Source of the DNA: Antedon mediterranea
Taxonomy: Eukaryota > Animalia > Echinodermata
Assembly: GCF_964355755.1 (NCBI RefSeq)
Contig: NC_092671.1
Location: 24,564,070 to 24,628,069, forward strand
Reading direction: 5' to 3'
Length of the DNA: 64,000 bases
The notes beneath the pieces were generated by a model. It was not told the origin of the DNA and ran no database searches. It was given only the letters and a program-made list of their open reading frames with translations. Made by a program: the position numbers and the translations under genes. This document shows, one piece after another, positions 13,350-51,500 of this stretch. Every line of letters starts with the position of its first letter. Position 1 is the first letter of the stretch.

Positions 13350-20419
<7,070 letters not shown>

Positions 20420-20461
20420 ATTTCTAATCTGTAAAAAAGGTTTAAATATGCAACTTATTAA

Positions 20462-20944: not shown

Positions 20945-22311
20945 TAGGTAAATTTATGTTGTTGTTATGTAAATTAAAAACCTTTGACATTAAATACATA
21001 AACCATTTTTGTCCCATTTGAAGCACAATTTTGTTTTTACTGTGATACTGTTTAAACACATAGTTTAATACTGACAGTTGCTTCTTAATAGTATTGATTA
21101 ATAATTACAAAAAATATAAAAGTCGTAGTGGTGTATCGTTACACGTACTTTACTATCTCAATCAACTATGACAGTGACAGTTTCAATAACGTATTAAATC
21201 GCTAATGTTTAGTGGTTTATTATTTATAAAACACAAAAACAAATATGTCATTACGGATAAGGAATATATTAAAAAAGGGTTCCTCTTTGCACCCACCCTC
21301 TTACCATCCCTCAACCCTAATGTTACATACAAAACACAAATTGGGTTTGTTTACTCAAGTACTTCCCAGGGTACTAATTTTAGTTGGCTACATAAATCAC
21401 CGTGTCTGTTTATTATGTACATTTAAAATTGCCACTTTTTTACACTGAAATTACAATGTATTTGAGAACCATCTGGTAATAATAATAAGCATTGACACAA
21501 CAATGCAATGAAATCATAGTAAAGTCAAAGTCTGAGCTGATGATAAAGGTCTTAAGCTTTGATTTAAAGGAGTTCAATGAAGTTATTTCCAAAGAAATGG
21601 AGCTGCAAAAGTAAATTATCGATTACCCACCCTATGACGATCGAAATATACAAAAAAAATGTCGCGCCAAAATGACGATTCGCCCGGACCATAAACATGG
21701 GTGCGTCATGGTCACCTAAAGGTCAGCACATTTTTTATGCACGGGTGCGTCATGGTATTCATAAGGTATGACGAATATCGGACAAATGACGCACTTCTGC
21801 CGGGAGTCATATAGTGTGTCATACAATTGACAAGTGCATAGGCCCAACTAACTCAAACTTGGTATAAGACTTCACAGTCACCATCAATGAACTCTGTAGC
21901 GCAGCGGGTGAATGTTTTTAAATTGGGTAAGCTTGAGGATGGTGTGAAAGTACAGTTTATAAGGGCGCTACTGCACTTTCGCACCAAAACTGGGCATGCC
22001 ATAAGGTTACTCGCCATAAGGTTACTCACCATCACCACCACGCAGTGGGTGAATGTTTTTAAATTAGGTAAGCTTAAGTGAAATAGCATAAATAGGCCTA
22101 GGCCTAGACTATATAGCCTCTAGGCCTATATGACTATGTCTATGCGGTGCTACTGCACGAATTTCCTACTACTGCACTAGGCTATCCCTCTAGACTAGTA
22201 GTAGTAGGTCTACCCTACTAGCTGACTGCTAGAGTATGCTCTAGACTAGAGAGTAGGCGACCATTTTGAGTAATTTTAAGGGGTGGGTACGAAACTGCAT
22301 TAGCGCCAGAG

Positions 22312-23132
22312 GGATTACGGTCGAAGCGGCCGCCAACTAAAGCGGCCGCTAGTTCAATAACGGTAATCTGTATGGAAGGCCGTGTGCGCTTTGATTGTCG
22401 TTGTTTTGTAATCTTTGATTGCCATTGTTTCGACAGGTTTTCTTTACCTCGGACGTAAATAACAATCTATATTATTATGTAATTTATTCTCTTTTTTTTA
22501 CAGATTGAATGTGATACGCGTACGTTCTTTTAAACGAAATGGCGAATCGATGATTACTTATTTTACTTATTATTGCAATACTGTATAAAATGCGATAGTT
22601 AAATGTAAATGAGATATAAATATTCGGCAATACCGTAGGCCTACGTAAATTATTATTGCAATACTGTATAAAAATTCGATAGTATGTAAATGAGATATAA
22701 AGATTCGGCAATACCGTACGTAAATTATTATTATTGCAATACTGTATAAGGATTCAATAGTATAAACGAGATATGAAGATTCTGCAATACCGTATACGTA
22801 AATTATTATTGCAATACTGTATAAAGGATTCAATAGTAGTATGTAAACGAGATATAAAGGGTCGGCAAAATATATTTCGATATATGTATTAGTTAATAGT
22901 AAATACAAATAAAATATACATTGATTTATCGGCAGGCAAACTTAATTATTATAGAAATATAAAGATTTGATAGTACATGAGTTGGCTTACATTTATTTAG
23001 CTGTAACTCAACTCGCCATAGGGCATGGCGTTGACAACGACAATCAAAGATTAAAGCGCACATGGCGTTCCATACAAATGACGATATTAAACTGGCGGCC
23101 GCTTTGGTTGGCGGCCGCTTCAACCATACTCC
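22312..23132. mobile_element. Non-autonomous DNA transposon with about 90-bp TIRs and an 8-bp TSD (Merlin- or hAT-like)
   Basis: TSD CGCCAGAG at 22304-22311 and 23133-23140. TIRs GGATTACGGTCGAAGCGGCCGCCAACTAAAGCGGCCGC... and ...GCGGCCGCTTTGGTTGGCGGCCGCTTCAACCATACTCC. Internal degenerate tandem array (ATTATTGCAATACTGTATAAA...) at about 22565-22870. Confidence 0.85.
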
Positions 23133-23307
23133 CGCCAGAGTAGGCTAGGTAGTAGAGGCCTACTAGGCTAGCCTAACTAAAGTAGTAAAGCTACTACTAG
23201 CGTAGCCTACTACGGCCTAACTAGGCCTAGACTAGGCCACTAGCTAACCTAGCCTAGCTAGGCTAGCCTAGCTAGTAGAGTAGGCTATGGCCTACCTCCT
23301 AGCCTAG

Positions 23308-23604
23308 TGTTGTGAACGGCGCCCGCTGGGTAAACAGACCACCCCTCCAACCGAACGAGGGCGTCGCCCCGGTAGCTTGATTTGCATACATGGGGTATGC
23401 AAATGTTAACTGGGGCCTCGACGCCGGCCGAACCGATCTATTCGAAGCAGGAACCAAGGAGAAACGGACACAACCGGAATTGACCAAGATATTTGGATTT
23501 ACTGCTTACGGATACTTGTGTGATTTAGGACAAGCGGGACTGTTAAGGTAAGCCTAGTAGCTTTCATTATCAGGCCATTCCAGCACCAACCTAAAATCAC
23601 AACA
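23308..23604 (+). repeat. 5' LTR
   Basis: 297 bp, TG...CA, 8-bp terminal inverted repeat, same sequence as 30812-31108. Confidence 0.97.
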
Positions 23605-23605
23605 T

Positions 23606-23619
23606 TGGCGCTGCGAGCA
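23606..23619 (+). other. Primer-binding site, probably for tRNA-Ser
   Basis: TGGCGCTGCGAGCA begins 1 nt after the LTR. Its complement TGCTCGCAGCG-CCA resembles the 3' end of animal tRNA-Ser; the tRNA identity is from memory and unverified. Confidence 0.75.
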
Positions 23620-24430
23620 AAAGCTCGGAAATCTTTTTTTTTGGTGGGGAGGCGGGTGCCTTGATTGCCAGCTGGCATTCTTAACGTGATCGGGTTGATT
23701 GCGAGGTATTTCGTCCTCTGCTGAAATTATTAACTTATTGTACTTACGGTGCATTTGTTAGTTTATTGAAGTTGGTATATTTATTGAAGGTATAACATAC
23801 CGGTAAAGTTAATCACGCAGTATTGTGGCATTTGGATACTTGCTGATTAGCGTATCGACGGGGTAGTCGATGCGTACCGGGAGTTGTATTTATTTTGCTA
23901 TAGTTGAAGGATTAGTGGGCAGTTTACTAGGCCGTATCACCTGGTGAGGTACTAGGCGTGGCCGTTGAACTGAGTGGCACCACTAATTTTTAGATTTGAT
24001 TGTTTTTTATTGATAACATCTTTTTCGTCCGTCAGTCAGGTTTTTCATCTTGAGAAATTATATTGGCTGTGCGTATTATTGTGTTAACCTCACAGTGGCA
24101 TTATCGCTCTCCTTTCTTTGCATCGGGGGAAGGTTTAGTGGTAAGTGTTGTTAAACTGTATTGACGTCTTTTTGAATAATCTAGTTGTTTCTCATTGCAG
24201 GTTTGCTGGTGAAATATTTTATTATATTTGCATCTCCAACAACCATTTTGCAATATTGTGTGTGTGTTACTGCATTGACGATATTTTATTCTACTGTTGG
24301 GCCTGTAATTTTTATTACGTCTGGCGGTATTTTAATTTGTATCGTACTCTTTGCTTAATAACATCTGCCATACACTGTAACTAGATTTAGGAGCATAACA
24401 ACCCAATAGAAGAGAGACGATTTTTAGACC

Positions 24431-26344
24431 ATGTCGTCTAATAAGGTTCTAGTTAACTTTTGCCCAGTGCAAGATCTTCATGGAGTCCCTAATGTAGGGA
24501 AGAAACGAGCAACTAGAATAATTAAATGGCGGGCTACCCATGGCAACATTACGCCCTCTAATATTAATCAGATACACGGAGTAGCTGGTACTGCCAGGTT
24601 GGTGGACTACCTGGATTTTCAGCCGAATCCGAGTTTAGGGGGAGGCGTAGGCCAGATGATTGATAATGTGTCACCTCTAGTGGAGAAGCAAAATAGAGCG
24701 GCCAGAAAGGGGTCGCAGGTCTCACAATCTGTAGGTATGGAAGGGGCATATCGGGGGAAAAATGACGGGGGCCATAGTGGTCGATACCACGTCCTCTCAT
24801 CGCCCCAGGCTACTCCTTTATTAGACGTACCAGGTACGTATTATACTACAGGACCTGCTAGTGATCCTCGTTATCTCGAAGGTGGGCTTGGGGCTTATAC
24901 GCCATCCACCTTCGCTGGGCGTTCTGACCAGGATAGGAGTAAGAATAGGTCAACACAACGTAGGAGCTACATCAAAAAGCCATCTCCGATAACCTTAGAC
25001 TCGTGTTTTAGCTCTAGGGAGGACGAGGAGGAAAGACTCCCCAGGAGACTATCTAAAACCGCTAGGTCTAAAACTAGGGCTCGCCGGCGATCTCCATCAG
25101 CCAGCGATAGTGACCTTAGTGGGGATGGTGCTGATACTGATAGTAGCAGGAGTAGAGAGTCGGATAGACAGTCGGATAGACATAGTGCAGGGGCTAGGAC
25201 AGCAGTGGAGTGTCTTAGGGCTATCCCGAGAGTCAGGCACTATGAAGGCCGGCAGGATTTTTTAGAACGTAGGAGGATGCGTAAAAAAGATATACCTAGG
25301 TCTCTAACGTTTAGGGGGAGGGGAGACAACTGGTCCTTTTTTAAGCGGCGGTTGGCTTCATTTATAGAGGAGCAGGAACTCACAAACCGTGAAAGTAAGG
25401 ACGTCCTTACTTGGTGTTTAGACGGGGCGGCGGCTGAGTTCTATGTGAATCTGATAGAAATGGACGCTGATTTGGGCTTTAGGCAGATCATTAAAGCTTT
25501 TAACCGACGTTTTAGTGAGGACGAGCTCCCCGCAGTCCTCCAAGCTAAATTAGAGACTGCTACGCAAAATGAGGGAGAGACTATAGAGGAATGGGGAGAT
25601 AGAGTGCTAACCTTGACTAGAAAGGCGTTTAAGGATTTGCCCAAGGAGTGGATCCAAGAGCAGGCCGTAGTTAGGTTTTGTATTGGGTGCAGGGATGCAG
25701 AAGTAGGTAGGCACGTCATGCACAAGCACTGTTCAACTATTCCCAGAGCCATTAGGGAGTTTGAAAAATATGATAGTTATAGGGGGCTATATAGTAAACG
25801 TAAGAGTAAGGTTAAGGATACCGTGAAACCTCATGTTAGGTCCACGGTCCGTACTTCTTTTGCACCCCCACTATCTTTTCAGCTACCTTCAGAAGACCAG
25901 GACGATACCGAGGGTGAAACTGGCGATGAGGTGTCCATTCAGCAGGTGCGAGGGAGGCCTATGAGGGGAAACCGTGTAACGTTTCAAAGGCCAGCACCAG
26001 CTTGGGTTCCTCCGGAACCCGCACCTACTGATGGCCAGAACCAGCAACGAACTGTGACGTCGGTGCCACCCACCAACAATACTCCTACTACAGAAGCCCG
26101 TTTGGCTACTGTGGAGGGTAATTTCCAGACGTTGAATACCAATCTGGGACGGGTGGAGAACACCGTGAACACGGAGATTGCCGCCATGCGGAATCAATTG
26201 GATCAGCTCATGCGTTTCCTGAGACCAGGCGAACTGGCTTGCTTTGAATGTAAGGAGGTGGGACACTTCCGCAGGGAGTGTCCGAGATTAGCGAGCCGTT
26301 TGCGTCAGGTTAGTGGCAATGAGCCAGATCCGTTAAACGAGTAA
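24431..26344 (+). CDS. gag: Gag (637 aa): N-terminal HhH domain, RS/acidic region, capsid-like domain, coiled coil, CCHC knuckle
   Basis: Open ORF. Capsid-like motifs WSFFKRRL, LDGAAAEFY, QNEGETIEEWGDRV. Zinc knuckle CFECKEVGHFRREC. N-terminus VNFCPVQDLHGVPNVGKKRATRIIKWRATHG resembles a ComEA-type HhH. Confidence 0.92.
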   Translation: MSSNKVLVNFCPVQDLHGVPNVGKKRATRIIKWRATHGNITPSNINQIHGVAGTARLVDYLDFQPNPSLGGGVGQMIDNVSPLVEKQNRAARKGSQVSQSVGMEGAYRGKNDGGHSGRYHVLSSPQATPLLDVPGTYYTTGPASDPRYLEGGLGAYTPSTFAGRSDQDRSKNRSTQRRSYIKKPSPITLDSCFSSREDEEERLPRRLSKTARSKTRARRRSPSASDSDLSGDGADTDSSRSRESDRQSDRHSAGARTAVECLRAIPRVRHYEGRQDFLERRRMRKKDIPRSLTFRGRGDNWSFFKRRLASFIEEQELTNRESKDVLTWCLDGAAAEFYVNLIEMDADLGFRQIIKAFNRRFSEDELPAVLQAKLETATQNEGETIEEWGDRVLTLTRKAFKDLPKEWIQEQAVVRFCIGCRDAEVGRHVMHKHCSTIPRAIREFEKYDSYRGLYSKRKSKVKDTVKPHVRSTVRTSFAPPLSFQLPSEDQDDTEGETGDEVSIQQVRGRPMRGNRVTFQRPAPAWVPPEPAPTDGQNQQRTVTSVPPTNNTPTTEARLATVEGNFQTLNTNLGRVENTVNTEIAAMRNQLDQLMRFLRPGELACFECKEVGHFRRECPRLASRLRQVSGNEPDPLNE

Positions 26345-26375
26345 GGGTTGGGTCAGAGGGCCGACGACCTAACCC
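26332..26375 (+). promoter_or_regulatory. Programmed -1 ribosomal frameshift signal (gag to pol)
   Basis: G_TTA_AAC slippery heptamer in the gag frame, one codon before the stop; 6-nt spacer; 10-bp stem GGGTTGGGTC/GACCTAACCC. The pol frame is -1 and open from 26323. Confidence 0.8.
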
Positions 26376-28878
26376 GGTTCCAGAAGCTGGCCAGAAAGAG
26401 GATGGTTCGTCGACTATCCCCAAGCTAGGCCCGATGGCCAAGCCTGTAGATACAGAGGGGGTAGCACCGGATCCTGTGACGATCATTGAGCCATCTGCAA
26501 TTAGCTCAGGGCTGATTGAATCATCTACACCGACAACAACCAAAACTGAAGAGACTCAAACCCGGATTGTTATCAATAGGGTAAAATCGTTGAATGCGTT
26601 GCATGCAACTGCTTTTGTCAATGGTACCAAAATTGACGCAGTCGTGGATACTGCAGCGGATTTTACCATACTATCCGATAAGGTTTATAAAAGTCTGGAT
26701 CCGGCACCACCTGTGGTGTCCACCCTGTCCTTTACTTTGGCGGGGAGGGGGACATCTATGCCAGGGTCGAAGGTGGGGCCGCTACAATTTACATTGGGAA
26801 CCAAAGAGTACCATGAATTCTTTTATGTTGCCCCCATCAATGACGATATGCTCTTGGGTGGTGATTTTCTTCATCCACAGGGAGCCGTTATCGATTGTGG
26901 AAATTTGCTTTTGGCAATTGGGGGCAGTACCATATCTCTAAGAGGGGATTCACCGGTGGAACCTAGGGTTGCCCAGGTAACGGTGGCTAAACGGAGAGTA
27001 ATTCCTCCTCACTCAGCCGCTCATGTTAAATGTAAACTTGTGACTAACAATGTATCTATGCCTGATTTCTTTATAGAGCCAGTTCCAACTACTGACGATG
27101 TGGCGATACCGGCAACTTTACATCTACGCACTGATGCGCCATGCATCTGTGTCATCAACACATCTGATCACTATCTTACTATGAAAAAGGGTAGACAGAT
27201 AGGTACGGCCAGGGAAGCTGAAGGGGTGAGTGTGTTCCAGACGGGGGTGACTCCGTCCGAGGATGCTTTGTCGAATCAAGCGGACGATGACGGTAACCAA
27301 CCCGAGGGGGTGCCGGCGCACCTAGTGGGCATGTTGGACTCTTCGAGATCTAATCTCTCAGGTGAAGAGGCTGACGCGCTCACTAAACTACTGGTTGATT
27401 ACCAGGATGTCTTCGCCGCTCATCAGTTCGACATTGGCACCTTTGGTGATATTGAACACAGCATCGACACTGGAGATGCCTCACCGATCAGGCAACGGCT
27501 CCGCCATACTCCTCTGCGCTTTGTGGGGGAGGAGGAAAAGGAGATAAAGAAGATGTTGGAGGCTGGTGTTATTCAACCATCTATGTCTGAATGGGCGTCA
27601 CCGCCTGTGTTGGTCCGGAAGCGCGATGGTTCTGTGCGCTTTTGCATTGACTATCGAGCTCTCAACAACATCACGACTAAAGATGCGTATCCATTACCTC
27701 TGATTCGTGATTGCCTTGACACACTGTCGGGGAATATCTGGTTTTCTAAACTGGACGCGATTTGGGGGTACTGGCAGATTAAGATGAAGGATGAAGACCG
27801 TAAGAAGACAGCGTTTATCACCAAGCATGGCCTGTATGAATTCGTGAAAATGCCATTTGGTCTTACCAATTGTCCTGCAACCTTCTCCCGTGCCATGGGT
27901 TTGGTGCTGCGGGGATTGGCGTGGGATACGGTATTGGCATTTCTCGATGATATTGTCGTGCTAGGTAAAACGTTTGAAGATCATCTCAGCAACCTCTCTC
28001 AGGTTCTGCAGCGATTTCGTGTTAACAACTTTAAACTTAAACCTAAAAAGTGTGTTTTCTTTCAGAAACAGGTTGAATTTTTAGGGCGAATCGTTGGGGA
28101 GGATACGGTGGCAGTGTCCGATTCGGATATAAAGGCTGTTCAAGACTGGCCGGCACCTACCCATCTGAGAGAAGTACAGCAGTTCTTGGGGTTGGCTAAT
28201 TACCATAGAGAGTTCATTGAGAACTTTGCTGGTTTAGCTGCACCTCTATATGAACTCACTAAAAAAGAGGTGAAGTTTCACTGGGATGAGGAACAACAAC
28301 AAGCGTTCACCGACCTGAAAGCTGCTCTCGTTCAACCTCCTCTACTCGCCTTGCCGAACGGGACTGATGAATTTATTCTGGATGTCGACGCTTCGGATCA
28401 AGCGCTAGGAGGCGAGCTGCTCCAGGTGCAGGAAGGTAAGGAGAAGGTAATTGCATACGCAAGTGCTCGTCTAACTCATGAACAACGGAACTATTGCACT
28501 ACACGCAAGGAGTTGCTAGCAATTGTGTTCATGACAAGGCATTTTAGGCACTACCTTCTAGGCAGACCTTTTAGAGTGCGGACTGATCACAATAGCCTGA
28601 CCTGGCTCCTCAACTTCAAGCAGCCACAGGGGCAACTCGCTCGGTGGATTGAGGAGTTGAGCCAGTACCACCTGTTGATTGAACACCGCCGAGGGCAACA
28701 CCATGGCAACGCCGATGCTCTGTCTCGCCGACCCGAAACTCATGACAGTAGCCACGAACGGCCTGCGCTTGAAGGGCTTCCCTGTGGGGGCTGTTCGTAC
28801 TGTCAACGAGCGGATGCGAGATGGTCAGCGTTCCAGGATGAAGTGGACGACGTTGTGCCCATCGCGCACGTACACTAG
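26338..28878 (+). CDS. pol: Pol part 1: aspartic protease, reverse transcriptase, RNase H
   Basis: PR VVDTAADFT...LLGGDFL; RT SEWASPPVLVRK, RFCIDYRALN, MPFGLTNCPATF, AFLDDIV; RNase H LDVDASD, YCTTRKELLA, RTDHNSL, NADALSR. Ends at an in-frame TAG (28876-28878). Confidence 0.95.
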   Translation, partial: RVRVGSEGRRPNPVPEAGQKEDGSSTIPKLGPMAKPVDTEGVAPDPVTIIEPSAISSGLIESSTPTTTKTEETQTRIVINRVKSLNALHATAFVNGTKIDAVVDTAADFTILSDKVYKSLDPAPPVVSTLSFTLAGRGTSMPGSKVGPLQFTLGTKEYHEFFYVAPINDDMLLGGDFLHPQGAVIDCGNLLLAIGGSTISLRGDSPVEPRVAQVTVAKRRVIPPHSAAHVKCKLVTNNVSMPDFFIEPVPTTDDVAIPATLHLRTDAPCICVINTSDHYLTMKKGRQIGTAREAEGVSVFQTGVTPSEDALSNQADDDGNQPEGVPAHLVGMLDSSRSNLSGEEADALTKLLVDYQDVFAAHQFDIGTFGDIEHSIDTGDASPIRQRLRHTPLRFVGEEEKEIKKMLEAGVIQPSMSEWASPPVLVRKRDGSVRFCIDYRALNNITTKDAYPLPLIRDCLDTLSGNIWFSKLDAIWGYWQIKMKDEDRKKTAFITKHGLYEFVKMPFGLTNCPATFSRAMGLVLRGLAWDTVLAFLDDIVVLGKTFEDHLSNLSQVLQRFRVNNFKLKPKKCVFFQKQVEFLGRIVGEDTVAVSDSDIKAVQDWPAPTHLREVQQFLGLANYHREFIENFAGLAAPLYELTKKEVKFHWDEEQQQAFTDLKAALVQPPLLALPNGTDEFILDVDASDQALGGELLQVQEGKEKVIAYASARLTHEQRNYCTTRKELLAIVFMTRHFRHYLLGRPFRVRTDHNSLTWLLNFKQPQGQLARWIEELSQYHLLIEHRRGQHHGNADALSRRPETHDSSHERPALEGLPCGGCSYCQRADARWSAFQDEVDDVVPIAHVH

Positions 28879-30579
28879 GTAGCCGTGGACCACCTGGAGG
28901 GTACTCTGCCAGGGGACGATGTTCCTTGGGACCCCGGTGGACAAGTAAGTATAGAGGTATCACGGACTGCTACTAACGGTACGATTCAGTTTTCTTTCCT
29001 ACAGGACGATGATGGTGGACGAGTGGCTGCAGTACAGCTACGGCCGAAGGGAGCCGAGTGTTGGGGTTACTCACTGGATGAGCTACGGCAACATCAAACG
29101 AGTGATCCTGACTTGGCACCTGTTCTGGACTGGTTGCAGAATGGGGAACCCTCCGAGAATCAGCTGTTTATCTCCAGCGCTGCCACCAAACACTACTGGC
29201 TGAACAGGCAACGCTTGCATCTCACGGAGGCAGGTATACTGTTCATCAACCAAGCAGAGGGTACCGGACGACTACTTGTGTTGCCCAAGGAGCTACACGC
29301 CGTAGCTTTTAGGTTACATCATGATTTGCCGTCGGCGGGTCATCAAGGGGTCGCCCAGACCAAGTTCCGATTGAAGGAGAAGTTTTTCTGGTACGGTATG
29401 GGCGGGGATATACAGAGGTATGTACAGACTTGCAACATTTGTAATAGAAGCAAGAAGGCTACTCGGCAAGGTCGACATCGGTTGACTGAATTCCAGGCCG
29501 GCGTTCCCATGGAACGCGTACATATCGATTTCCTTGGCCCGTTACCAAAAACTGAACAGGGGAATATTTACGTTCTTATGATGGTCGACCAATTCACAAA
29601 ATGGGTTGAGATCAGCCCGCTCCCGTCTCAGGTTGCGGAGGTAACCGCTAGAGCCCTAGTAAGGGACTTCTTCTCTAGATTCGGTGTACCTTTTCAGTTA
29701 CACTCAGACCAGGGGAGAAATTTTGAGAGTGAATTGTTTGCATCTTTATGTAGAGTTTTACAGATCCACAAGACCCGGACGACAAGCTACCGACCGTCGG
29801 CTAATGGTCAAGTAGAGCGATTTAATCGAACACTTATGGATGCTGTACGATGCTTCGTTGGGAAGAGACAACGAGACTGGGATGTCTATCTCCCGCAGAT
29901 TGCTGGTGCACTACGCGCCACGGTGAACCGCTCGACTGGTTTTACTCCAAACATGCTGATGCTGGGCCGAGAGGTTAATTTACCAGCTGATCTCATGTTC
30001 GGAGAATGCCGGTCCACTAATGAGCAGGAAGCCGCTATCTACGTTGCAGATTTGGTGAAAGCGACCCGTGATGCCCATGGCATCGCTAGGGATACGCTAA
30101 AGCAGACTCAGAAGAGAATGAAACGGGACTATGATCTTCGAGTGCTGGAACGTCCATACCAATGTGGGGACAAAGTCTACGTTCTTGACAACGCTACCCC
30201 TCGGGGGAAGTGCAAGAAATTGTGTCCCCCCTGGAAGGGGCCCGGTATTATTACTAACGTTATTAGTTCTTGTTTATTTCAGGTGCAGCTGAGAAATAAG
30301 ACGGTGGTGTTAAATCATGATAAGCTGAAGCCCTGTCGGGATCGACAACTTCCCAAATGGCTGGCTGATTTTCATTTACCCCCTCTCTCTTCACCTACAG
30401 ATCCGGATGCAGGACCGTTGTATTGTCTATGTCGCCAGCCCTGGGCCGGCTCATTTATGATACAATGTGACTATTGCGAGGTGTGGTACCATGGTGCATG
30501 TGTGAATATTGCACCATCTGAGGCTTTGGACATCGACTTATATCGATGTGCGGACTGCAAGTCCTCGGTTAATAATTAG
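28879..30579 (+). CDS. Pol part 2: integrase (HHCC, DDE, GPY/F) with a C-terminal PHD finger
   Basis: Same frame as pol part 1. HHDLPSAGHQG...CNIC; VHIDF, HSDQGRNFES, GQVERFNRTL; WKGPG; PHD LYCLCRQPWAGSFMIQCDYCEVWYHGACVNI...YRCADC at 30418-30558. Confidence 0.95.
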   Translation, partial: VAVDHLEGTLPGDDVPWDPGGQVSIEVSRTATNGTIQFSFLQDDDGGRVAAVQLRPKGAECWGYSLDELRQHQTSDPDLAPVLDWLQNGEPSENQLFISSAATKHYWLNRQRLHLTEAGILFINQAEGTGRLLVLPKELHAVAFRLHHDLPSAGHQGVAQTKFRLKEKFFWYGMGGDIQRYVQTCNICNRSKKATRQGRHRLTEFQAGVPMERVHIDFLGPLPKTEQGNIYVLMMVDQFTKWVEISPLPSQVAEVTARALVRDFFSRFGVPFQLHSDQGRNFESELFASLCRVLQIHKTRTTSYRPSANGQVERFNRTLMDAVRCFVGKRQRDWDVYLPQIAGALRATVNRSTGFTPNMLMLGREVNLPADLMFGECRSTNEQEAAIYVADLVKATRDAHGIARDTLKQTQKRMKRDYDLRVLERPYQCGDKVYVLDNATPRGKCKKLCPPWKGPGIITNVISSCLFQVQLRNKTVVLNHDKLKPCRDRQLPKWLADFHLPPLSSPTDPDAGPLYCLCRQPWAGSFMIQCDYCEVWYHGACVNIAPSEALDIDLYRCADCKSSVNN

Positions 30580-30797
30580 GTACTCGCGTTTATTCTCTCT
30601 TCCCTCTCAGACAGGGACCAGGTGCCGTTTGCTGACGGAAGCAGGGGACGGTGCTACCGGCATGTCCCACGGCCATTGACTGTCTGAAGAGATCGTTGGG
30701 AGCAGTCTACATAGCTACGGGTATCGGGTATTTTTTCACGTACGAAAATCACCTGGTTTACCCCCGAGGTGGACCCAGGACGGGGTGCCCGCTTTTC

Positions 30798-30811
30798 AAA
30801 CACGGGAGGAG
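30798..30811 (+). other. Polypurine tract
   Basis: AAACACGGGAGGAG immediately before the 3' LTR. Confidence 0.7.
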
Positions 30812-31108
30812 TGTTGTGAACGGCGCCCGCTGGGTAAACAGACCACCCCTCCAACCGAACGAGGGCGTCGCCCCGGTAGCTTGATTTGCATACATGGGGT
30901 ATGCAAATGTTAACTGGGGCCTCGACGCCGGCCGAACCGATCTATTCGAAGCAGGAACCAAGGAGAAACGGACACAACCGGAATTGACCAAGATATTTGG
31001 ATTTACTGCTTACGGATACTTGTGTGATTTAGGACAAGCGGGACTGTTAAGGTAAGCCTAGTAGCTTTCATTATCAGGCCATTCCAGCACCAACCTAAAA
31101 TCACAACA
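30812..31108 (+). repeat. 3' LTR
   Basis: Identical to the 5' LTR; followed by the TSD CTAG. Confidence 0.97.
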
Positions 31109-31479
31109 CTAGCCTAGTTGATGTAATTATCAAGAGGGGCTTATAGGCATAGCCTAGCCTCGACTCCGGACCCAGCACTGCTGAGCTCCGGAAACAAGTA
31201 AACAAGTAAGTAAGTAAGTAAGTAAGTCTAGGCCTAGGCCTAGGCCTAGTAGGCCTAGGCCTAGGCCTAGTAGTTAGAGCCCTAGTTAGTACTAGCCTAC
31301 GCCTAACTACTAATAATATTCCTAGGCCTAGGCCTAGTAGTAGGCCTATGTGGTTAGTTACTAAAATACAGTACCCGGTAAATTAGGTTTAATCAAACTG
31401 ATGTTTAGGCCCCCTAAGCTAGGCCGGCCTTATTAGTTAGTCGAGTAGTCTTATTATCCACAAACAAGAAGTAAGCTAG

Positions 31480-37507: not shown

Positions 37508-37580
37508 GGATTCTTGGCGTAGTGGTTATCACGTTTGCTTAACACGCAGAAGGTACCTGGTTCGAGCCCGGACGAAACCT
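37508..37580 (+). pseudogene. tRNA-Val(AAC)-like pseudogene, copy 1
   Basis: A box TGGCGTAGTGG; anticodon loop TT-AAC-AC; B box GGTTCGAGCCC; followed by a T-run. The acceptor stem is mismatched. Confidence 0.7.
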
Positions 37581-37793
37581 TTTTTTTTTTTAATTTATGG
37601 TGAAAAGTACTGTATACGCAATATGATAATTATACAGAGTATATCTTATTTTTATAATTTTTTAATATACTTAATTTGTGTAATCGGTAATTATCACTTT
37701 TACACATGTTTATTTTGCTTTGTGCTTATTACCATTTATTTGTAATTTAAATGGATTAAAAAACTTTCTGTAACCCACATTTTTAATGTAAGA

Positions 37794-37865
37794 GGTTTCG
37801 TAGTGTAGTGGTTGTCAAGTCTGCTTAACACGCAGAAGGTCCCGGTTCGAGCCCTGGCGAAACCT
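37794..37865 (+). pseudogene. tRNA-Val(AAC)-like pseudogene, copy 2
   Basis: Acceptor stem GGTTTCG/CGAAACC; anticodon stem TCTGC/GCAGA with AAC; B box GGTTCGAGCCC. D and T stems carry mismatches. Confidence 0.7.
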
Positions 37866-38205
37866 ATTTTCTTTACTTTTAACTGTATACGTCTGTATAC
37901 AGCTTCTTTCGCTGTACCCCGAGTATTGCACATTCGTGCTTGTTTTTAAACTACTTCAAATATTCTTGTCTTTTATGTTATGTATATGCACCATTAAAAG
38001 TCACAGTTAATTGATTTTACGTGACGTAATAATACACCAATGAACATCATTGTTATTATGAACACGAAACAATTTGATTAAAAATTCAATCCAAGTGCAC
38101 CTGACGAACCATATGCGGAATTCAGTGGTGAATATAATTTACATCCTAAAGAGAGTCAAACGTGACGCATTTTAAAGCATACTGTTAGTCAATCAAAATT
38201 AAACA

Positions 38206-39135
38206 ATGCAAACAAAAAAAATGAATAAAACTATCCCTGAAATTACTTCCCAAATCCAAATTAACAAATCAATATTACAAAGAGAACACACAGTTATGTT
38301 TCTCGGAATACATATAAATGAACATTTATGTTGGAAACCCCATATAAACTGCATCTCAAATAAAATCGCTAAATCCATTGGTATCATCTACAAGGTAAAA
38401 CCCGTCTTTCCTAAACATATTCTTTTAAATTTGTACAATGCGTTTAGCTTACCACACCTCTATTACTGCAATATAATATGGGGAAATGAATATCCAACAA
38501 ACTTAGAAAAAATACATAAATTACAAAAACGTATAGCTAGAATGATTACAAACTCACCGATGAGAACAGCCTCCAAACCACTATTACAAAGTTTAAAAAT
38601 GTTAAATATATACGATATAAATAAAATTCAAATTGCATGCTTTATGTTCAAATATCATCTCCAGGAACTTCCCATCCCTATAAACAACTTGATTGATTTA
38701 AACCCTAAAACTGATCGCTTAAAGACATTAAGAAACGCAAATAAGATATATATTCCACACAGTAGACTAGAAATTAATAAAAGATCAATTTTTATTGAAG
38801 GACCAACATACTGGAATAAACTCCAGTCTACCCTAGAACAAAATCACATGACCTCACTCCCTATGCTAAAGTACAATATTAAAAAGATGATATTTGAAAC
38901 ATATTGCTAGCTACTATTGCTACTGCAAAATTGGGGTTGTAAACATTTAGCTTATATCACTTTGTTGTGTTTGTGTTTTTTTTTTCTTTTTCTGTCTCAA
39001 AATGTCCTTTTTTGTTAATGTAATGCGTCCGTATAATATGTTTTATGTTTATGCTTAGGACTACAAAGACAAGCCACTTTGGCTTCTGTGTATCTTAACC
39101 CATACACTTTGTAAAATATTGAATATTGAATAAAT
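38206..39135 (+). mobile_element. 5'-truncated non-LTR retrotransposon (CR1/L2/Crack group): RT C-terminus and 3' UTR
   Basis: ORF 38206-38910 with FLGIHINEHLCWKPHI...LYNAFSLPHLYYCNIIWG...LQKRIARMI; downstream AAGCCACTTTGGCTT hairpin and AATAAA. Confidence 0.85.
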
Positions 39136-39612: not shown

Positions 39613-41446
39613 TCAATTAACATACGATGTGTTCTGTACATCCCAAATCTCTGTAAACAGTGTATTTCTGGTATCAAATACCAGTTTGCATAGAATGCTT
39701 GCATTCTGTGTAAGTTTATATTTTCTCTGTTTGAAACCCCTAAAGTGCAATTTTGTAACTTCCCCACTTGTACAATTACCAATGAGCTGCTGATTAAGGT
39801 TACGTAAGTGTGCAAGATCTTGTTGGAAATCACCTTCGTAATTGGCAATCCTTTTCCAAAGACTTTGGTTAAAATGGTCGTATAACATTACATCAACACT
39901 ATTCCATTCACGTACGTTACGATGTAACTCTTTGTTACCTTGTTGCTTATCTTTCCGTCGGTTTTGGGAGGCATACATTATGTCTTCGAATCTCCAACAG
40001 AACATTTTGCGTAAAATAAGTAGTGATTCGTCTAAATAATCTCCAATTAGTATAAAATCGAATTCTTCGTCAAGTTTTTCTAGTTTATCTTTTACAATTG
40101 TAATATTATCATGCCATGAATGCTCAAGACCAAGATCAAACATTTGATTATTTCGAGAATACTTCCACATAGCACTAGATCTTCCAAACTTATTTCTATA
40201 TAATTTAGGATTTTGCATGAATAATTCTAGGGCGGCTTCGGTATTATTTACACCTACAACTTTGTTGAATGTAAAATATTTAAATGCTGATACGAATTGA
40301 TCAACTGGATTTCGTAAAATGGTAACATATTTTGTTCGATTGTCCATGAAAGTTTCAAAGATAGTTCTGTTATAAAGAACGTGTACCGACGATATGTTGA
40401 ACTTGAAATCGTTAAACTCTCTTTTTATTTTTCCTCTCGGGGGTAAAAAGTATTCCTCTTCTAATACGTCAGATAATGAAGTGTAATAGAAGTGACCGTT
40501 TAGAGGTATTTTCTTGTTTAAAACGAATGATAAATTATTTAAAAATCCATAACGATTAAATATACTAGTTACTGTCGTACTTGCTGTCTTATGGGTTTTT
40601 ATAAAAGCGACGTTGTTTACTTTAGCTGAGGAACATTTGTTTGGTGAACTGGGCCCAGTGGTTTGACTAGTCGTTACTGTTCGAACTGTATCGTTGTCAA
40701 TAAATATTGTACTGTATCTGCAAATAAAAAAAATATATATTTTACTTAACATTTGAAAATTACTAAAGATATATAAAATCAATCAACTTTCTGTATTGGA
40801 CGAGATAGTGAACTACCACTTAGTAAATTCTATGGTACACTCAATTAATTTTAACTTACCGAAATATGGGCGTCTGAGAAAGGTTCAAAATGACACAAAC
40901 CAATATTGAAAGAATAATGGTACCAAGAAAAATAGTTGTTTTGGTCTGTTAAGAAAATTTGAATATAGAGTTATGAATGAATAGCGCTTCCGTGTTTAAA
41001 ATTAAATTAGGTATAATATGTTTTAATATATCAATTACTGATAGGCCTAGTTGTGCGTTGTTTTACTCTGTTGACATTATGTATGCGAAATAGAATCTTG
41101 TTACATTTACACAATATTTTTCTAGATTACATATTACATTTTCTATTTATGCATCAACAACTGATCTTTGAATATTATATGATATCAATAGTTAATATTT
41201 AATAGTTTACATAACATTATGATACAACTTAATCAAAATTTACTTTCATTTGTAGTTAGTTTATCCTGTCATTTAAACATAATCAATTAGTCTGACTTTA
41301 CTCATTCTTTGACATTTGGTGTAGTATGTATAGTAGGGCCTAGTCAGTAAACCTTCAATTATATTACAAATACAGCTCGTGTTACCATATTCCTATATAA
41401 TCATATATCATGTACAATGAACATTGTAAATCGTTACCTTTTGCAT
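39613..41446 (-). CDS. Galactose-3-O-sulfotransferase family protein (type II Golgi membrane)
   Basis: Exons 41446-41438 (MQK), 40945-40860 (TM anchor TTIFLGTIILSILVCVIL), 40717-39613. 5'-PAPS motif FIKTHKTASTT; YVTILRNPVDQFVSAF; NNQMFDLG; DESLLILRKMFCW; WNSVDVMLYDHFN. Confidence 0.9.
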
Positions 41447-46792: not shown

Positions 46793-47544
46793 GTAATTTT
46801 AATTATTTATTTCTAACATAAAATTATTATGGCATTTTAGTACCTTGTTCTTAATACACTTAGCATTATAGATCAATATAATGCTATTCGCTTGTCTCTA
46901 TGCTAAAATTATTTTAGGCTAGGCCTAGGCTAGAGATTTGGTTTTGGTACACTGACTGTTTTGACAGAGAGAGCAAGTCAAAACCGAAATGGTTGGATGT
47001 ATGTGTCTAAATTAGACATTTAATAACCAGCAATATGTATGCCTAGCCTATCAAGTCATGCCTAGCTATCTCTGATTGAGATAGCTAAACTTGTATATAG
47101 CCTAGCTAGGCTACATTTATTTGCGATGATTAAAATGTTCATTTTCCATAATAATAAGTTATTATGAGGCTTAGCTAGGCCTAGCCTAGCTAGTATTAGT
47201 AGTAGGCCTAGACTAGCTATCCTAGGCATTCTTTACTCCATGCATGGGCCTAACATAGTACTAGGCCTAGACGATTTTCGTGCTATGGAAGCCATCTTGC
47301 GTGACAAGCCGAGCATAAAAACAAAATAACCGTGTTTTCAGACGGGATTTCTTAACGGAGGGTCGTATGAGAAAACAAAATTACTGTAAAATGTTCTTAA
47401 AAGATTGGCCGGCCCTACATAACTGTATGAATATGATTGAAACAAACATGGTTTGCAGCTCCCCCTGCCTTTTTAACTGCTCGGCCAACTCATCTTGACC
47501 AATCAAATACTCGTTTTGCTTACAAAAGCTTGGCATTAAATTAA

Positions 47545-48322
47545 CACCGTGGTTAGGATTCCGGCACCGGAATTCAACTGCCCACCGTTAAGGAATCTGA
47601 CACGCTACTGCGCATGCCCACCGCGAAGCAATTATAGCTTGCACTAGTGCCACAGACCGCGCACCACACCATCGAGAGTCGGTTACACACTGTAGCCTAG
47701 TTAGTCGTTGCGCGGGGGAGAGTGAGATGGATGAAACTTGGCCATACATGAATTAATAATTAAAATAGAGGAAGTATAAGTTCGGAACGGGAGAAAAACA
47801 CCAGGCCTGCTCAGTGTCATAACGCTTGCGTATTTCAAGAAATGTACGAAAGTGAATATAGCGTAGCGTTGCGACCCCGACTTTCCCGAACAGTTCTGTT
47901 TTTTTTTCCACATCCGCGCGGCAGCTAGGTTGCCGTCAACAAATCAACTTGTATACGAGAGGGCATGTTATTACAGCATAATGCGTTTTATGAAATCTTT
48001 TTATTTTGTACTTGAAAAATCATAAACTAGTCATGTAGGCCTAATTATAATTCATAATTATATGAAGTTTAATACATGAATGAAGCAACCACTTTTTTAA
48101 TTACGAAATAAATAGGCCCACTGGTCACATCTAGCTGGTAGGCCTACTACTAGTAGTATTAGTTAGTAGGCATCTGGGCTAGTTCGCCGTGGCGCAGCTA
48201 TTAAATGATCCCATCGCTGTTATTAGAGTCGCCGATTACTTCATTGTGGGCATGCACAATAGCGTGTCGGATTCCCTAAAGCTGGGCAGTTGAGTTCCGG
48301 TGCCGGAATCCTAACCACGGCG
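47545..48322. mobile_element. piggyBac-like MITE upstream of the CNOT2 coding region
   Basis: TTAA|CACCGTGGTTAGGATTCCGGCACCGGAATTCAACTGCCCA...TGGGCAGTTGAGTTCCGGTGCCGGAATCCTAACCACGGCG|TTAA, about 40-bp TIRs. Confidence 0.85.
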
Positions 48323-48504
48323 TTAAATTAAATAGGCATAGGCCCTGCAGTATCCTAAATTTATTATAATTTGCTTAAATTGTAATTTTGGACGTTTTTT
48401 ATAAATAATGTCACAAATTATTCTTTGTCTTAAATGTGAGTGTATGGTTAATTATGAAGCTAGCAATAGAAATTCTAATTCTACTATTATTTACAGATCA
48501 TCAG

Positions 48505-51500
48505 ATGGCGAATTTAATGGGCTATGGTGGCCAGTGAGTGCATTTTGATTTTTTTTTTCCACATAATCGGACATTACTATATTTGCTAAATGTATGATTT
48601 GATGGTTTTGTTATTTAACTTAAAGACACTGGGAATTACAGTAAGATACTCTCTCTACAGACCCACAGAAGTGTCTATTATTGTCCGATTAAGTTATTTA
48701 TTATTATTTTATTTCCCAGTACATTTCCAGCATTATGACCGGGTTAATTTTTCATCCAACACCCATACTCATAATAAACAACCAAATACTGAGTAACCCC
48801 ACTTTAATAGATTTAATCCAATCATTGTTACATGTACAGTACATCACAAAAATGAAGCACCTTAATCCTTTTTAATGCATGCATGATACAATGGTAAAAT
48901 GGCAGATACATGTCTATCACAAAAGGGGAGAAGGTTTTCAAACACATCCAGGGGGATCTGTAATTTTTATTTTCAAGATATGCTTTATTAGTAATAAACA
49001 AATTCTAATAGTAGTAGCAATTATTAAAATGCATAATAAAAAAAATACTTACAATACAGTACATTCAAGATAAAAACAATGCTGATAGCTGTATGCATAC
49101 TTACAGTGTTTCATTACAGCAGTACCTTTTAAATCTAATGTATTGCTCATTTTTTTTCTGAACAGATTTGGGTTATCCCAATTACCCAACGACAGGAAAG
49201 GACAGCCAGATTTAAATCAGCCTGGTAAACGCAACTTTTATGTTTACTTAGTGGTGGTCAATATATAGCCCACTCAATATTTCATTGACATGTGAAAAAT
49301 AATTTACTAGCCTACTAAATTATAGTGAAATCATAATACAAATGGATCTTAAAATCAGCAGTTTTGTCAATTTTCACATACTTTTTTTTTTTTTTTTTTT
49401 TTTTTCAGATTTTACATTGTTAGGGAAAAAGGGGAAGATGGGATTTTTTGGAGAAGGAGATAAGGAAATAAGTGATCCAACAAGTATATACTTTCCAGCA
49501 CACAGGTCGGAAAAAGATGTAAGTGTAAGACATGATTTATATGATCTATCAGCTGTTTCTTTTGATGATGTAGCCCACTGAGTTAGTTGATGGTGAACTG
49601 TATGCTATTTTTTACTATATAAAGCCTTGATTGCACTGGACTTAATTTGGCTATACCCACTTGTTTTTCTAAACTACTATCAGTAAATGTATCTCTCTCC
49701 AAAAAAGTTAGTTCTGATCGACTGCCATTGTAGTTAAAATACTGTAGGTTTAAATTAAATTGCCCAAACATTCTTTTATATAAATGTATTTAGAAAATGT
49801 ATTCAATCATAAAACAGAATACAATATCATAAAAAAAGAAGTTAAAGTATTAATATCAGGTGTGCTGTTAACCTTACCAATTAAAAAAACAAAATCAGTT
49901 TATTTAGCTACATTAAAATATTATATACAGTAGAACCTATGTTTTAGTTTTACATTCCCTGGCTTTTACGTAAGCTTAAAATGACCAATGATGTCATCAT
50001 TTTCTTACATTGAGGGCGCAATTTAACAACAACAAAGCCATGGCTGTGTGAGGAATTCTGATGTGTGAGACAAGCTACACACGTGCATTTCCCCTACAGC
50101 AGCGACTGTTTTTATTGATAGAAAATACAAGAACATTGATATTTCAATTTACACTTTATTTAAACATAGCACAGCCTTTATATACTGTACTTTTTTAGTT
50201 AGGCCTCACATCTTGCTAGCCTGGCCAGCTAGCTAGTGACCCACCTGCATGCTGTACAGTAAAGTAGGAAAACACGGCAGCCTTTTTAGCTATGATTTAA
50301 GATCAACCTGGATTTTATGAATCCCATGTTTTACGCACGCCTTTCGGTTCCGTACGTAAAATGAAGGTTCTACTGGTAAATTGCATACAAATTTTGTCTT
50401 GAGCTTGTGTCTATATATGTACTGCTGATACCTCCTTTTTTTGTAGAAAATTATGGGTTCGAATCTCAGTCATGATTAATATGGTTAATTAATTAATTTC
50501 AAATTTACAGGTATTATCATCACAATTTGGTGTTGGTGGATTTGGTCAGAGTAAGTGATTGTTTCTTTTACATTGAATATTTACAATATTAGTTTTTTGG
50601 ATATGTTGTTCAACAAATATCGTTCAAAAAATAGATATTGATAGAATATATCAGGCAATTTTTTTTCAAAATAAATGTTTTTGCTTGAAGTGGTTGTTGG
50701 AAAAGTAAAATATATGGAATAGATTGTATTTGTATTTATACAGACACAACTAAAGTGTCCCTTTATGCCGAACTGCCACAAAATAGCAGAAGCTGGATAT
50801 GCCCATTATTTAGCCATAACACTTACATAATTAATGATCTTTTTTTTGTTTGTTCATTGTTTTTAACCTATATTTTGAAAATAACTTAACTTTTGAACAT
50901 ACTGTATTGTCAATTACAAGTGAAGATTTGGGTGTTTAGGTTAATACTTTTTAATCCATCTTAGATATGCCAAGTCTGCCACGAGGAATGCCCACACCAC
51001 AACAATTTCCACCCAGAAGTTTATCAAGTCACCATGGTAATCTAGCAGGACATGTTACACCAACAAGTGCATCATTGACATCAGGAATGCAACCTATAAA
51101 CCCATCATCACCAAACAGGTTAACATTAATGTTTTTTCACTTAGATTAGCATAATGTGTCATTATAGCATGATGCTACAATACTGATCAGTTGAAATTCC
51201 TTGCATGTTTTGATCATTTAATATATTTACAAGCGTTGCTATCCTCGAGTGATGCATCATGTCACACATCACGCACGAACGTATCCACTAACCGTTACCG
51301 TTATCCAGATAAAAAAATTTAAAGGTACACACATTCTCGATCCATACATTAACTGACCTAATTTTATTTTGTTGGCCCGGAAGCGAACCCTGTGTAGCAT
51401 GTAAGCCTAGCTAATAGTACTTATAGGCCTAGACATCATACTCTATGCTAGCCTAGCAATTCGCAACACTGACAAAAATGATTCTCCATTACAAAAAAAC

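Follow-up and report, generated by a model that had tools for sequence, protein, structure and literature searches.

The window analyzed here, a 64-kb stretch of the genome of Antedon mediterranea, contains at positions 23308-31108 a full-length Gypsy element, 7.8 kb from LTR to LTR (Table 1). The hallmarks of Ty3/Gypsy elements are all present: paired LTRs of the form TG...CA, a target-site duplication, a primer-binding site (presumably for tRNA-Ser), a polypurine tract, and gag followed by protease, reverse transcriptase (RT), RNase H, and integrase. Pfam recognizes gag through Retrotrans_gag (E 3.5e-5) and zf-CCHC (E 6.2e-5), while HHH_3 and Ty3_capsid score under their cut-offs. The LTRs are identical and so indicate that the insertion is recent; they point to a young element. 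No chromodomain family is found among the Pfam hits at E<=0.01, and in the place where one might sit there is instead a PHD finger.

The uninterrupted pol expected of an autonomous Gypsy element is not found in this copy. It is defective, since an in-frame TAG splits RNase H from integrase, and to judge from its reading frames it would not produce integrase-PHD unless the stop were read through. The first-pass annotation of this DNA spoke of an integrase ORF; the frame in question is the 3' part of a pol gene split by the TAG.

Table 1. The Gypsy element and the neighboring host exon, in window coordinates
Feature	Position	Strand	Remarks
COPS5 first coding exon (host)	20285..20428	-	E 5.5e-15; start codon at 20419
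Target-site duplication, left copy, CTAG	23304..23307	+	Weaker evidence than such a match usually is, the flank being rich in CTAG
5' LTR, 297 nt, TG...CA, 8-bp inverted termini	23308..23604	+	Identical to 3' LTR
Primer-binding site	23606..23619	+	Similar sites follow the LTR in relatives L005, L008, L088, L096
gag: N-terminal helix-hairpin-helix, capsid-like region, CCHC knuckle	24428..26344	+	Pfam
pol part 1: protease, RT, RNase H	26323..28878	+	-1 frame; overlaps 3' end of gag
In-frame TAG between RNase H and integrase	28876..28878	+	Relatives open at the same point
pol part 2: integrase and terminal PHD	28879..30579	+	H2C2 finger, D217-D277-E313 core, GPY/F region
Cys4-His-Cys3 PHD, H3K4me3-reader class	30418..30558	+	Cage positions Y515, W522, M527, W536
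Splice-acceptor-like pyrimidine tract	30590..30610	+	Lies where the TatD-bearing third ORF of relatives starts; compared with post-PHD DNA of 13 relatives
Polypurine tract	30804..30811	+	Like tracts in relatives
3' LTR, 297 nt	30812..31108	+	Identical to 5' LTR
Target-site duplication, right copy, CTAG	31109..31112	+	

The finger at the tip of the integrase

The finger comprises residues 514-560 of its frame, which stops six residues further on. It matches the Pfam PHD family with 34.2 bits (E 2.6e-8), where the cut-off is 24, with the H2C2 and rve domains of integrase upstream in the same frame. A model of the finger based on 30 family members has a mean pLDDT of 84.7, and Foldseek finds with it 10 matches at E<=0.001, all of them PHD entries of KDM7A, BPTF, CFP1, PHF2, or PHF8; identity between the finger and these ten best structural matches is 48-55%. 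(A 359-residue model of integrase and PHD together was poor, pLDDT 50.8, and was set aside.) Translation, Pfam, a confident model, and Foldseek thus bear out the earlier claim that the integrase ends in a complete Cys4-His-Cys3 PHD.

The same annotation called the finger PHF8-type. As a single sequence searched against solved structures, it does match PHF8 best (1wep, E 1.3e-16, 63 bits), then PHF2, KDM7A, BPTF, CFP1, and DIDO, with 50 bits or less outside the KDM7 family. A donor within PHF8/KDM7 is not singled out by a search with the profile of the whole family, which puts six PHDs within 5 bits: PHF2 (76.7), CFP1 (74.8), DIDO (74.4), PHF8 (72.4), BPTF (72.3), and KDM7A (71.9). That makes the label too narrow, and judged by these scores "H3K4me3-reader class" is the one that fits.

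How H3K4me3 is held is known for PHF2: the methylated lysine lies between Tyr14, Met20, and Trp29, Tyr7 caps it, and the N-terminus of H3 is seated at Ile45/Asp46 (PMC8166343). Aligned with the window finger, Tyr7, Tyr14, Met20, and Trp29 of PHF2 correspond to the four cage positions of Table 1, in that order, which upholds the claim that the cage is retained, and Ile45/Asp46 correspond to I552/D553. Indeed, the C4HC3 ligands, the cage, and the positions of the N-terminus pocket are all common to the window finger and those of PHF2/PHF8/KDM7A, CFP1, DIDO, and BPTF. There are departures. In its first loop the window finger lacks one residue relative to those of PHF2 and PHF8, and Glu22, which in PHF2 contacts arginine 2 of H3, is replaced by Q529, as it is by Gln in 71 of 98 family fingers. 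D531, kept in 79 of the 98, may be the equivalent of BPTF D27, in the acidic groove for H3 arginine 2.

Within the family, the cage is preserved in most of the 98 distinct fingers: W in 96, M in 93, Y or F in 93, and all three in 88, frequencies that are inflated, as the homologs came from queries containing the PHD and the fingers were preselected by a C4HC3 pattern. The fourth position of the cage varies (D in 47, W in 25, Y in 9, E in 6, H in 5). By its resemblance to solved fingers, the window finger very probably binds H3K4me2/3.

An alternative view is that the ligand is a different methylation state of H3K4, or else a non-histone protein whose N-terminus mimics that of H3. Such things exist: the fingers of PHF2, KDM7A, DIDO1, and TAF3 bind methylated H3-mimic peptides, VRK1 for example (PMC8166343). 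The fourth cage position, Asp or Glu in 53 of the 98 fingers, also leaves room for a different preference. But the window copy has the full aromatic set, and its top structural matches come without exception from proteins with an H3K4me3-binding PHD. Histone H3, moreover, is far more abundant than any H3 mimic. I regard a ligand of this other sort as improbable.

Inheritance of the finger and the variety of integrase tails

The PHD tip is a real and conserved feature of a large clade of Gypsy elements in marine invertebrates. When the C-terminal 167 residues served as query, the PHD was present in 27 of the 30 near-length hits, 25 of them also with rve; the named sources of PHD-integrase hits are Anneissia, Mercenaria, Mytilus, and Lytechinus. 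Among homologs with a named source, that of the crinoid Anneissia japonica is closest (68%). A single frame holds RT, RNase H, integrase, and PHD in 24 of 29 long homologs, and among the best 150 representatives at 50% identity the finger is complete in 44. All these fractions are biased upward by the presence of the PHD in the queries. Scans with integrase words returned PHD-bearing and PHD-less elements alike, and a collection of viral contigs gave five distant loci, with a PHD in none.

How often was the finger gained? In a careful tree of integrases, built with the PHD left out, 32 PHD rows (the window included) separate from 17 others with support of 100/100. This tree omitted L067 and L080 (long or degenerate), L012 and L023 (near-duplicates), L013 (whose contig stops ahead of the PHD), and most distant outgroups; a quick tree of 88 rows, also with the PHD left out, has the omitted rows and gives the same clade, here of 37 rows (SH-aLRT 99). 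L100, probably a host gene, was excluded from PHD counts. In a FastTree of 113 protein rows, 31 of 33 PHD rows form one group, in which there are three fingerless rows (P0048, P0050, and P0077), and the remaining two, P0081 and P0069, fall within the sister group. In the clade to which the window element belongs, then, the finger was gained a single time.

Since that gain it has been passed down together with the integrase, and purifying selection has acted on it. Mean identity across 21 loci is nearly as high for the finger (0.54) as for the integrase (0.64), while that of the linker is 0.23; PHD dN in the closest pairs amounts to 0.10-0.19, synonymous sites being saturated or nearly so; and the distances between PHDs covary with those between integrases (Mantel rho 0.35, p 0.006). 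The finger is thus neither absent nor degenerate in sister elements, as the first annotation had allowed it might be, but kept, with the cage intact in 88 of 98.

These data also dispose of the idea that the PHD is a functionless piece of host sequence captured by chance, or an artefact of assembly. The broken pol of the window copy might encourage such an idea, but it is too much to ask of chance that the finger should recur in most near-length and longer homologs and in so many of the best representatives, and be maintained there by purifying selection. Contigs from all four public runs cover the finger, and one of 1910 nt spans integrase to PHD. The family data refute the idea, and I give it next to no credence.

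Elements of the sister group end differently. P0081 has a PHD (Pfam E 7e-6), and, given their place in the tree, P0081 and P0069 would represent a gain of the finger separate from that of the main clade. At the same position, another sister protein, P0145, has a zf-CW domain (E 6.5e-13), and the CW finger is another reader of H3K4 methylation. Other sisters have an acidic tail that ends in RxGR...P..L.D[YF]; a basic terminal motif of the RxGR type is present in 8 of the 8 sister loci shown. A strict pattern for the basic tail matches 29 of 56 long tails but none of the 46 PHD tails. This suggests that some generic function, in chromatin binding or nuclear entry, has been swapped between basic tail and finger.

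That suggestion leads to a second account of the finger, in which it does bind H3K4me3 but serves for general docking on chromatin, with no measurable bias towards promoters. Docking might serve to stay in the nucleus, to gain access in dividing cells or those of the germline, or to keep the new copy where it can be expressed. The replacement of the sisters' basic RxGR-type tail by the finger speaks for it, and the conservation of the finger, its cage, and its single gain fit it as well as they fit promoter targeting. The insertion site offers evidence of another kind.

The insertion site and possible promoter targeting

The COPS5 start codon is 2889 nt from the element, which is on its upstream side. 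A splice acceptor precedes the first coding exon of that gene, which makes it likely that an untranslated exon, and with it the COPS5 promoter, is closer to the element than the start codon is. Given two or three start codons, chance would put a site no more than 2.9 kb upstream of one of them 10-15% of the time. The CpG count of the empty site is reached by 15%, 4.2%, and 5.5% of host positions when counted over 1, 2, and 4 kb, respectively. High-copy repeats flank the element on both sides (their contig depth exceeds that of the element several- to tens-fold), and the CpG richness of the site may therefore come from the repeats. All told, the single site agrees weakly with promoter targeting and would arise by chance in roughly 5-15% of cases. 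Selection after insertion should disfavor insertions at promoters.

No stretch of the window is richer in CTAG/TAGGC than the empty site, whose level is attained by 0.8% of positions when counted over 1 kb; second in richness is a stretch immediately upstream of CNOT2's first coding exons. The target might therefore be set by DNA sequence, low in complexity and rich in CTAG/TAGGC, acting through the core of the integrase, with the PHD in a secondary role; the duplicated target, CTAG, is in keeping with this. But the five other LTR-edge flanks among those listed from the four public runs are different from one another, and none contains such a tract, which is evidence against a fixed target sequence. 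A fixed CTAG target I judge unlikely, and targeting through DNA sequence in general very improbable.

No LTR pair flanked by host DNA was found in contigs of relatives; the readable long ones were circularized or tandem. The 5' junction of the window copy is uncovered in runs X1 and X6 and very nearly so in X5 and X9, which would fit a recent insertion that is not shared, though a gap in cover proves nothing. Contig depth in X1 (LTR about 1590, interior 330-1000, junction contigs 33-65) hints at tens of LTRs, depth being no copy number.

I propose that the window contains a young, defective Gypsy element of a family whose integrase-tip PHD likely reads methylation of H3K4 and likely tethers the integrase to promoter-type chromatin, a reading to which I give a probability of about 0.55. 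The terminal PHD would bind histone H3 methylated at lysine 4, and the bound finger would tether the integration complex to open, promoter-type chromatin. If the finger does bind, then the odds lean somewhat towards the binding being used to bias insertion. There is a precedent of sorts: when the PHD of ING2 was fused to the integrase-binding domain of LEDGF, HIV-1 integration was redirected towards transcription start sites (TSSs), as related in a review (PMC8149907).

The same precedent counts against general docking, since an engineered tether with an H3K4me3-binding PHD did move integration towards TSSs (PMC8149907), and so does the one site seen, which is promoter-proximal. On the other side, that site sits in repeats, as docking without preference would allow. 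General docking is in my estimation unlikely, but well worth keeping in mind.

Promoter targeting through the finger would have the element work much as chromoviruses do. These (MAGGY, for example) have the same Gypsy order, with a histone reader following GPY/F, and the reader has been proposed to tether the integrase (PMC6673714; bioRxiv 10.1101/2021.11.30.470311). The window element is distinguished from them by its domain content, with a PHD of the H3K4me3 class and without a chromodomain. Its predicted target is active chromatin and theirs is heterochromatin, and targeting, demonstrated in chromoviruses, is here a prediction. By analogy, it would work as a chromovirus does, but with another reader in place, and by its domain content it is no chromovirus itself. 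The integrase-encoded readers for which targeting has been shown, the chromodomains, point to silent chromatin, and the MBD has been proposed to do likewise. A natural and widespread integrase reader of the H3K4me3 class would be the opposite strategy, met so far mainly in host tethers or engineered fusions.

The combination of Gypsy element and PHD is not new, and the novelty allowed for by the first-pass annotation was overstated. In Chlamydomonas reinhardtii, Gypsy-7a_cRei, like the window element a Gypsy LTR element whose polyprotein includes a PHD, is found in intergenic DNA 2.6 times above chance, and its authors raise the possibility of targeted insertion (bioRxiv 10.1101/2022.06.16.496473). 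The PHD of this green algal element is listed between RNase H and integrase, whereas that of the window element is C-terminal. Grau-Bove et al., in a survey of 172 genomes, catalogue fusions between PHDs and retrotransposons across eukaryotes, with the PHD co-occurring with RT and integrase domains, and describe PYGO-like, H3K4me-reading PHDs in cnidarian retrotransposons (bioRxiv 10.1101/2021.11.30.470311). The window finger differs from the cnidarian fusions: PYGO is absent among the best 60 of 85 matches of the family profile to solved structures and among all 38 single-sequence matches. PHDs have been called widespread in retrotransposons (PMC6673714), and Chlamys PLEs carry them (PMC8557442). 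In Ginger1-9_HM, a PHD follows a Gypsy-like integrase with GPY/F, in company with a Ulp1 protease (PMC2836005). Ginger1 elements thus share with the window element such an integrase with C-terminal add-ons, but they have terminal inverted repeats and neither RT nor LTRs, whereas the window element has LTRs, RT, and RNase H.

Neither the PHD clade nor its third ORF, discussed below, was found in the literature covered by my search, outside of which lay Repbase and most subscription journals. Word searches turned up no PHD in surveys of mollusc and polychaete LTR elements and nothing on the PHD clade in the searchable text of bioRxiv 10.64898/2026.05.21.726589, PMC4255032, PMC10799480, or PMC5890265; the main text of the last has neither the word PHD nor the word chromodomain. 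The supplements of Grau-Bove et al. may list the clade. Promoter targeting, if true, would bear on how promoters acquire LTRs and on the mutation load at housekeeping genes in these invertebrates. Family members are found in chromosome-level genomes of bivalves and echinoderms, and PHD-bearing elements and PHD-less sisters occur in the same datasets, making a clean comparison possible.

A TatD protein in the third ORF of relatives

Most relatives of the window element possess a third ORF (ORF3) of 600-1100 aa directly 3' of the PHD, in several cases with an acceptor-like tract ahead of it. The first reading missed this ORF, which is absent from the window. Thirteen of 16 third ORFs match Pfam TatD_DNase at E 3e-21 or better; of the three that do not, L006 has its TatD split into pieces, while L004 and L011 reach the end of the contig. 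The motifs DxHxH, GExGLD, HxF, and ETDxP are kept in 11 aligned TatD domains and in 83-89 of 92 database hits, about a dozen of which are bacterial or cellular TatDs. Long TatD proteins homologous to these come from 12 named genera, among them bivalves, echinoderms, and a hemichordate. The Acanthaster model P0243 is the only named TatD protein joined directly to integrase and PHD.

TatD lies downstream in 26 of the 27 PHD rows that can be assessed (one by a partial hit), and the window is the exception; 9 more of the 36 rows end too early to judge. PHD-less sisters have TatD in five cases and lack it in four, with 30 on contigs that permit no judgment. The presence of TatD in some of these sisters implies that it is likely older than the PHD, so that TatD was likely acquired first and the finger later.

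The window integrase falls inside the lineage defined here by a TatD ORF3, and yet neither ORF3 profile matches anywhere in the window, where about 230 nt separate the stop of pol from the polypurine tract. Because the acceptor-like tract is kept and profile search finds no remnant of ORF3, the window copy is probably a deletion derivative that lost the ORF. Given both that loss and an integrase-PHD that requires read-through, the copy was probably mobilized by the proteins of another copy, or else broken very soon after it inserted. One contig of run X9 departs from the window sequence after 30641, for 98 letters, and would fit a longer form bearing ORF3.

Bdelloid Juno and Vesta LTR elements have enzymatic ORF3s, a DEDDy exonuclease and a GDSL esterase (PMC5408684). 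The relatives of the window element resemble them in having a nuclease gene in the position of env, likely expressed from a spliced message, and differ in that the fold is that of TatD and the partner a PHD-tipped integrase; the window copy has no ORF3 at all. The text of PMC5408684 contains zero mentions of TatD. Titles and the starts of abstracts gave nothing related for TatD paired with retrotransposon, Gypsy, LTR, or transposable element, and this third ORF is a separate cargo that appears to be undescribed.

The TatD of ORF3 resembles TATDN2 in its Cys-Asp-Pro motif and in the long extension of its N-terminus, and TATDN2 is an RNase that acts on the RNA of R-loops (PMC10711561). Descent from TATDN2 is unproven: identity with mammalian TATDN2 is 31% over 210 residues, solved bacterial YcfH outscores human TATDN3, and a quick tree keeps TATDN2 apart from the ORF3 group.

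The finger and the third ORF can be combined in a broader proposal, which is conceivable, though I would sooner bet against it: that these elements are an old, undescribed lineage of marine-invertebrate Gypsy, a mirror image of the chromoviruses, that uses readers of H3K4 methylation to reach promoters and a TatD to clear hybrids or to hide. Its integrases would have taken up such readers repeatedly (in the PHD clade, in the second PHD, and in the CW finger). The TatD in the position of env would be catalytically intact and, with its Cys-Asp-Pro motif and long, disordered N-terminus, like TATDN2 in kind; it would clear RNA:DNA hybrids at targets or hide replication intermediates from sensing by the host. 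In public databases, third-ORF TatD proteins are annotated as the products of ordinary host or even bacterial TatD genes.

A third ORF with a TatD domain

Relatives of the Gypsy element possess a third ORF, 600 to 1100 aa in length, that lies 3' of the PHD. A helical conserved region occupies its N-terminal part, and its C-terminal part is a TatD nuclease domain, in which the metal-ligand motifs are retained (13 of the 16 third ORFs tested match Pfam TatD). This ORF is found at DNA loci L002, L005, L008, L014, L090-L092, and L094-L098, and in protein P0243, an Acanthaster gene model that unites rve, PHD, and TatD. Because the TatD ORF is present in five PHD-less sisters as well, it is likely older than the PHD in these elements.

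Loci L086-L098 are animal-type LTR elements that lie inside genome bins of bacteria with the labels Sedimenticola and SUP05. The TatD ORFs of these loci carry the bacterial annotation 'TatD family hydrolase'. The place of the elements in these bins is likely due to host contamination.

Termini of integrase and gag

Sister element P0145 has a CW zinc finger at its integrase C-terminus, and sisters P0081 and P0069 have a PHD there, placed separately from the PHD clade. The integrase of the PHD-less sisters L017-L022, L024, and L027 has an acidic tail, terminated by a basic motif (RxGR-like...P..L.[DE][YF]). The helix-hairpin-helix at the start of gag is seen likewise in relatives.

Surroundings of the element

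Features in the window and an example third ORF
Feature	Position	Strand	Remark
COPS5	15127-20428	-	
Inverted-repeat segment 1	22311-23133		adjoins CTAG/TAGGC tract and COPS5 5' end
gag helix-hairpin-helix	24428-24560		HHH_3, E 1.4e-4, below cut-off
tRNA-Val(AAC)	37508-37580		
tRNA-Val(AAC)	37793-37866		
235-codon open frame	38203-38910	+	zero matches in Pfam search
Galactose-3-O-sulfotransferase gene	39613-40782	-	
Inverted-repeat segment 2	about 47520-48330		adjoins CTAG/TAGGC tract and CNOT2 5' end
CNOT2	about 48500-60235	+	last exon E 2e-38
Third ORF, example	L005:6627-9347		

COPS5, CNOT2, and the galactose-3-O-sulfotransferase gene belong to the host. Targeting of tRNA genes by the Gypsy element is not suggested, since the tRNA-Val(AAC) pair is too distant, about 6.4 kb away. 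The two segments bounded by inverted repeats, the first of them high-copy and the second with a repeat pair identified by eye, are possibly MITE-like elements that favour promoters or form them.
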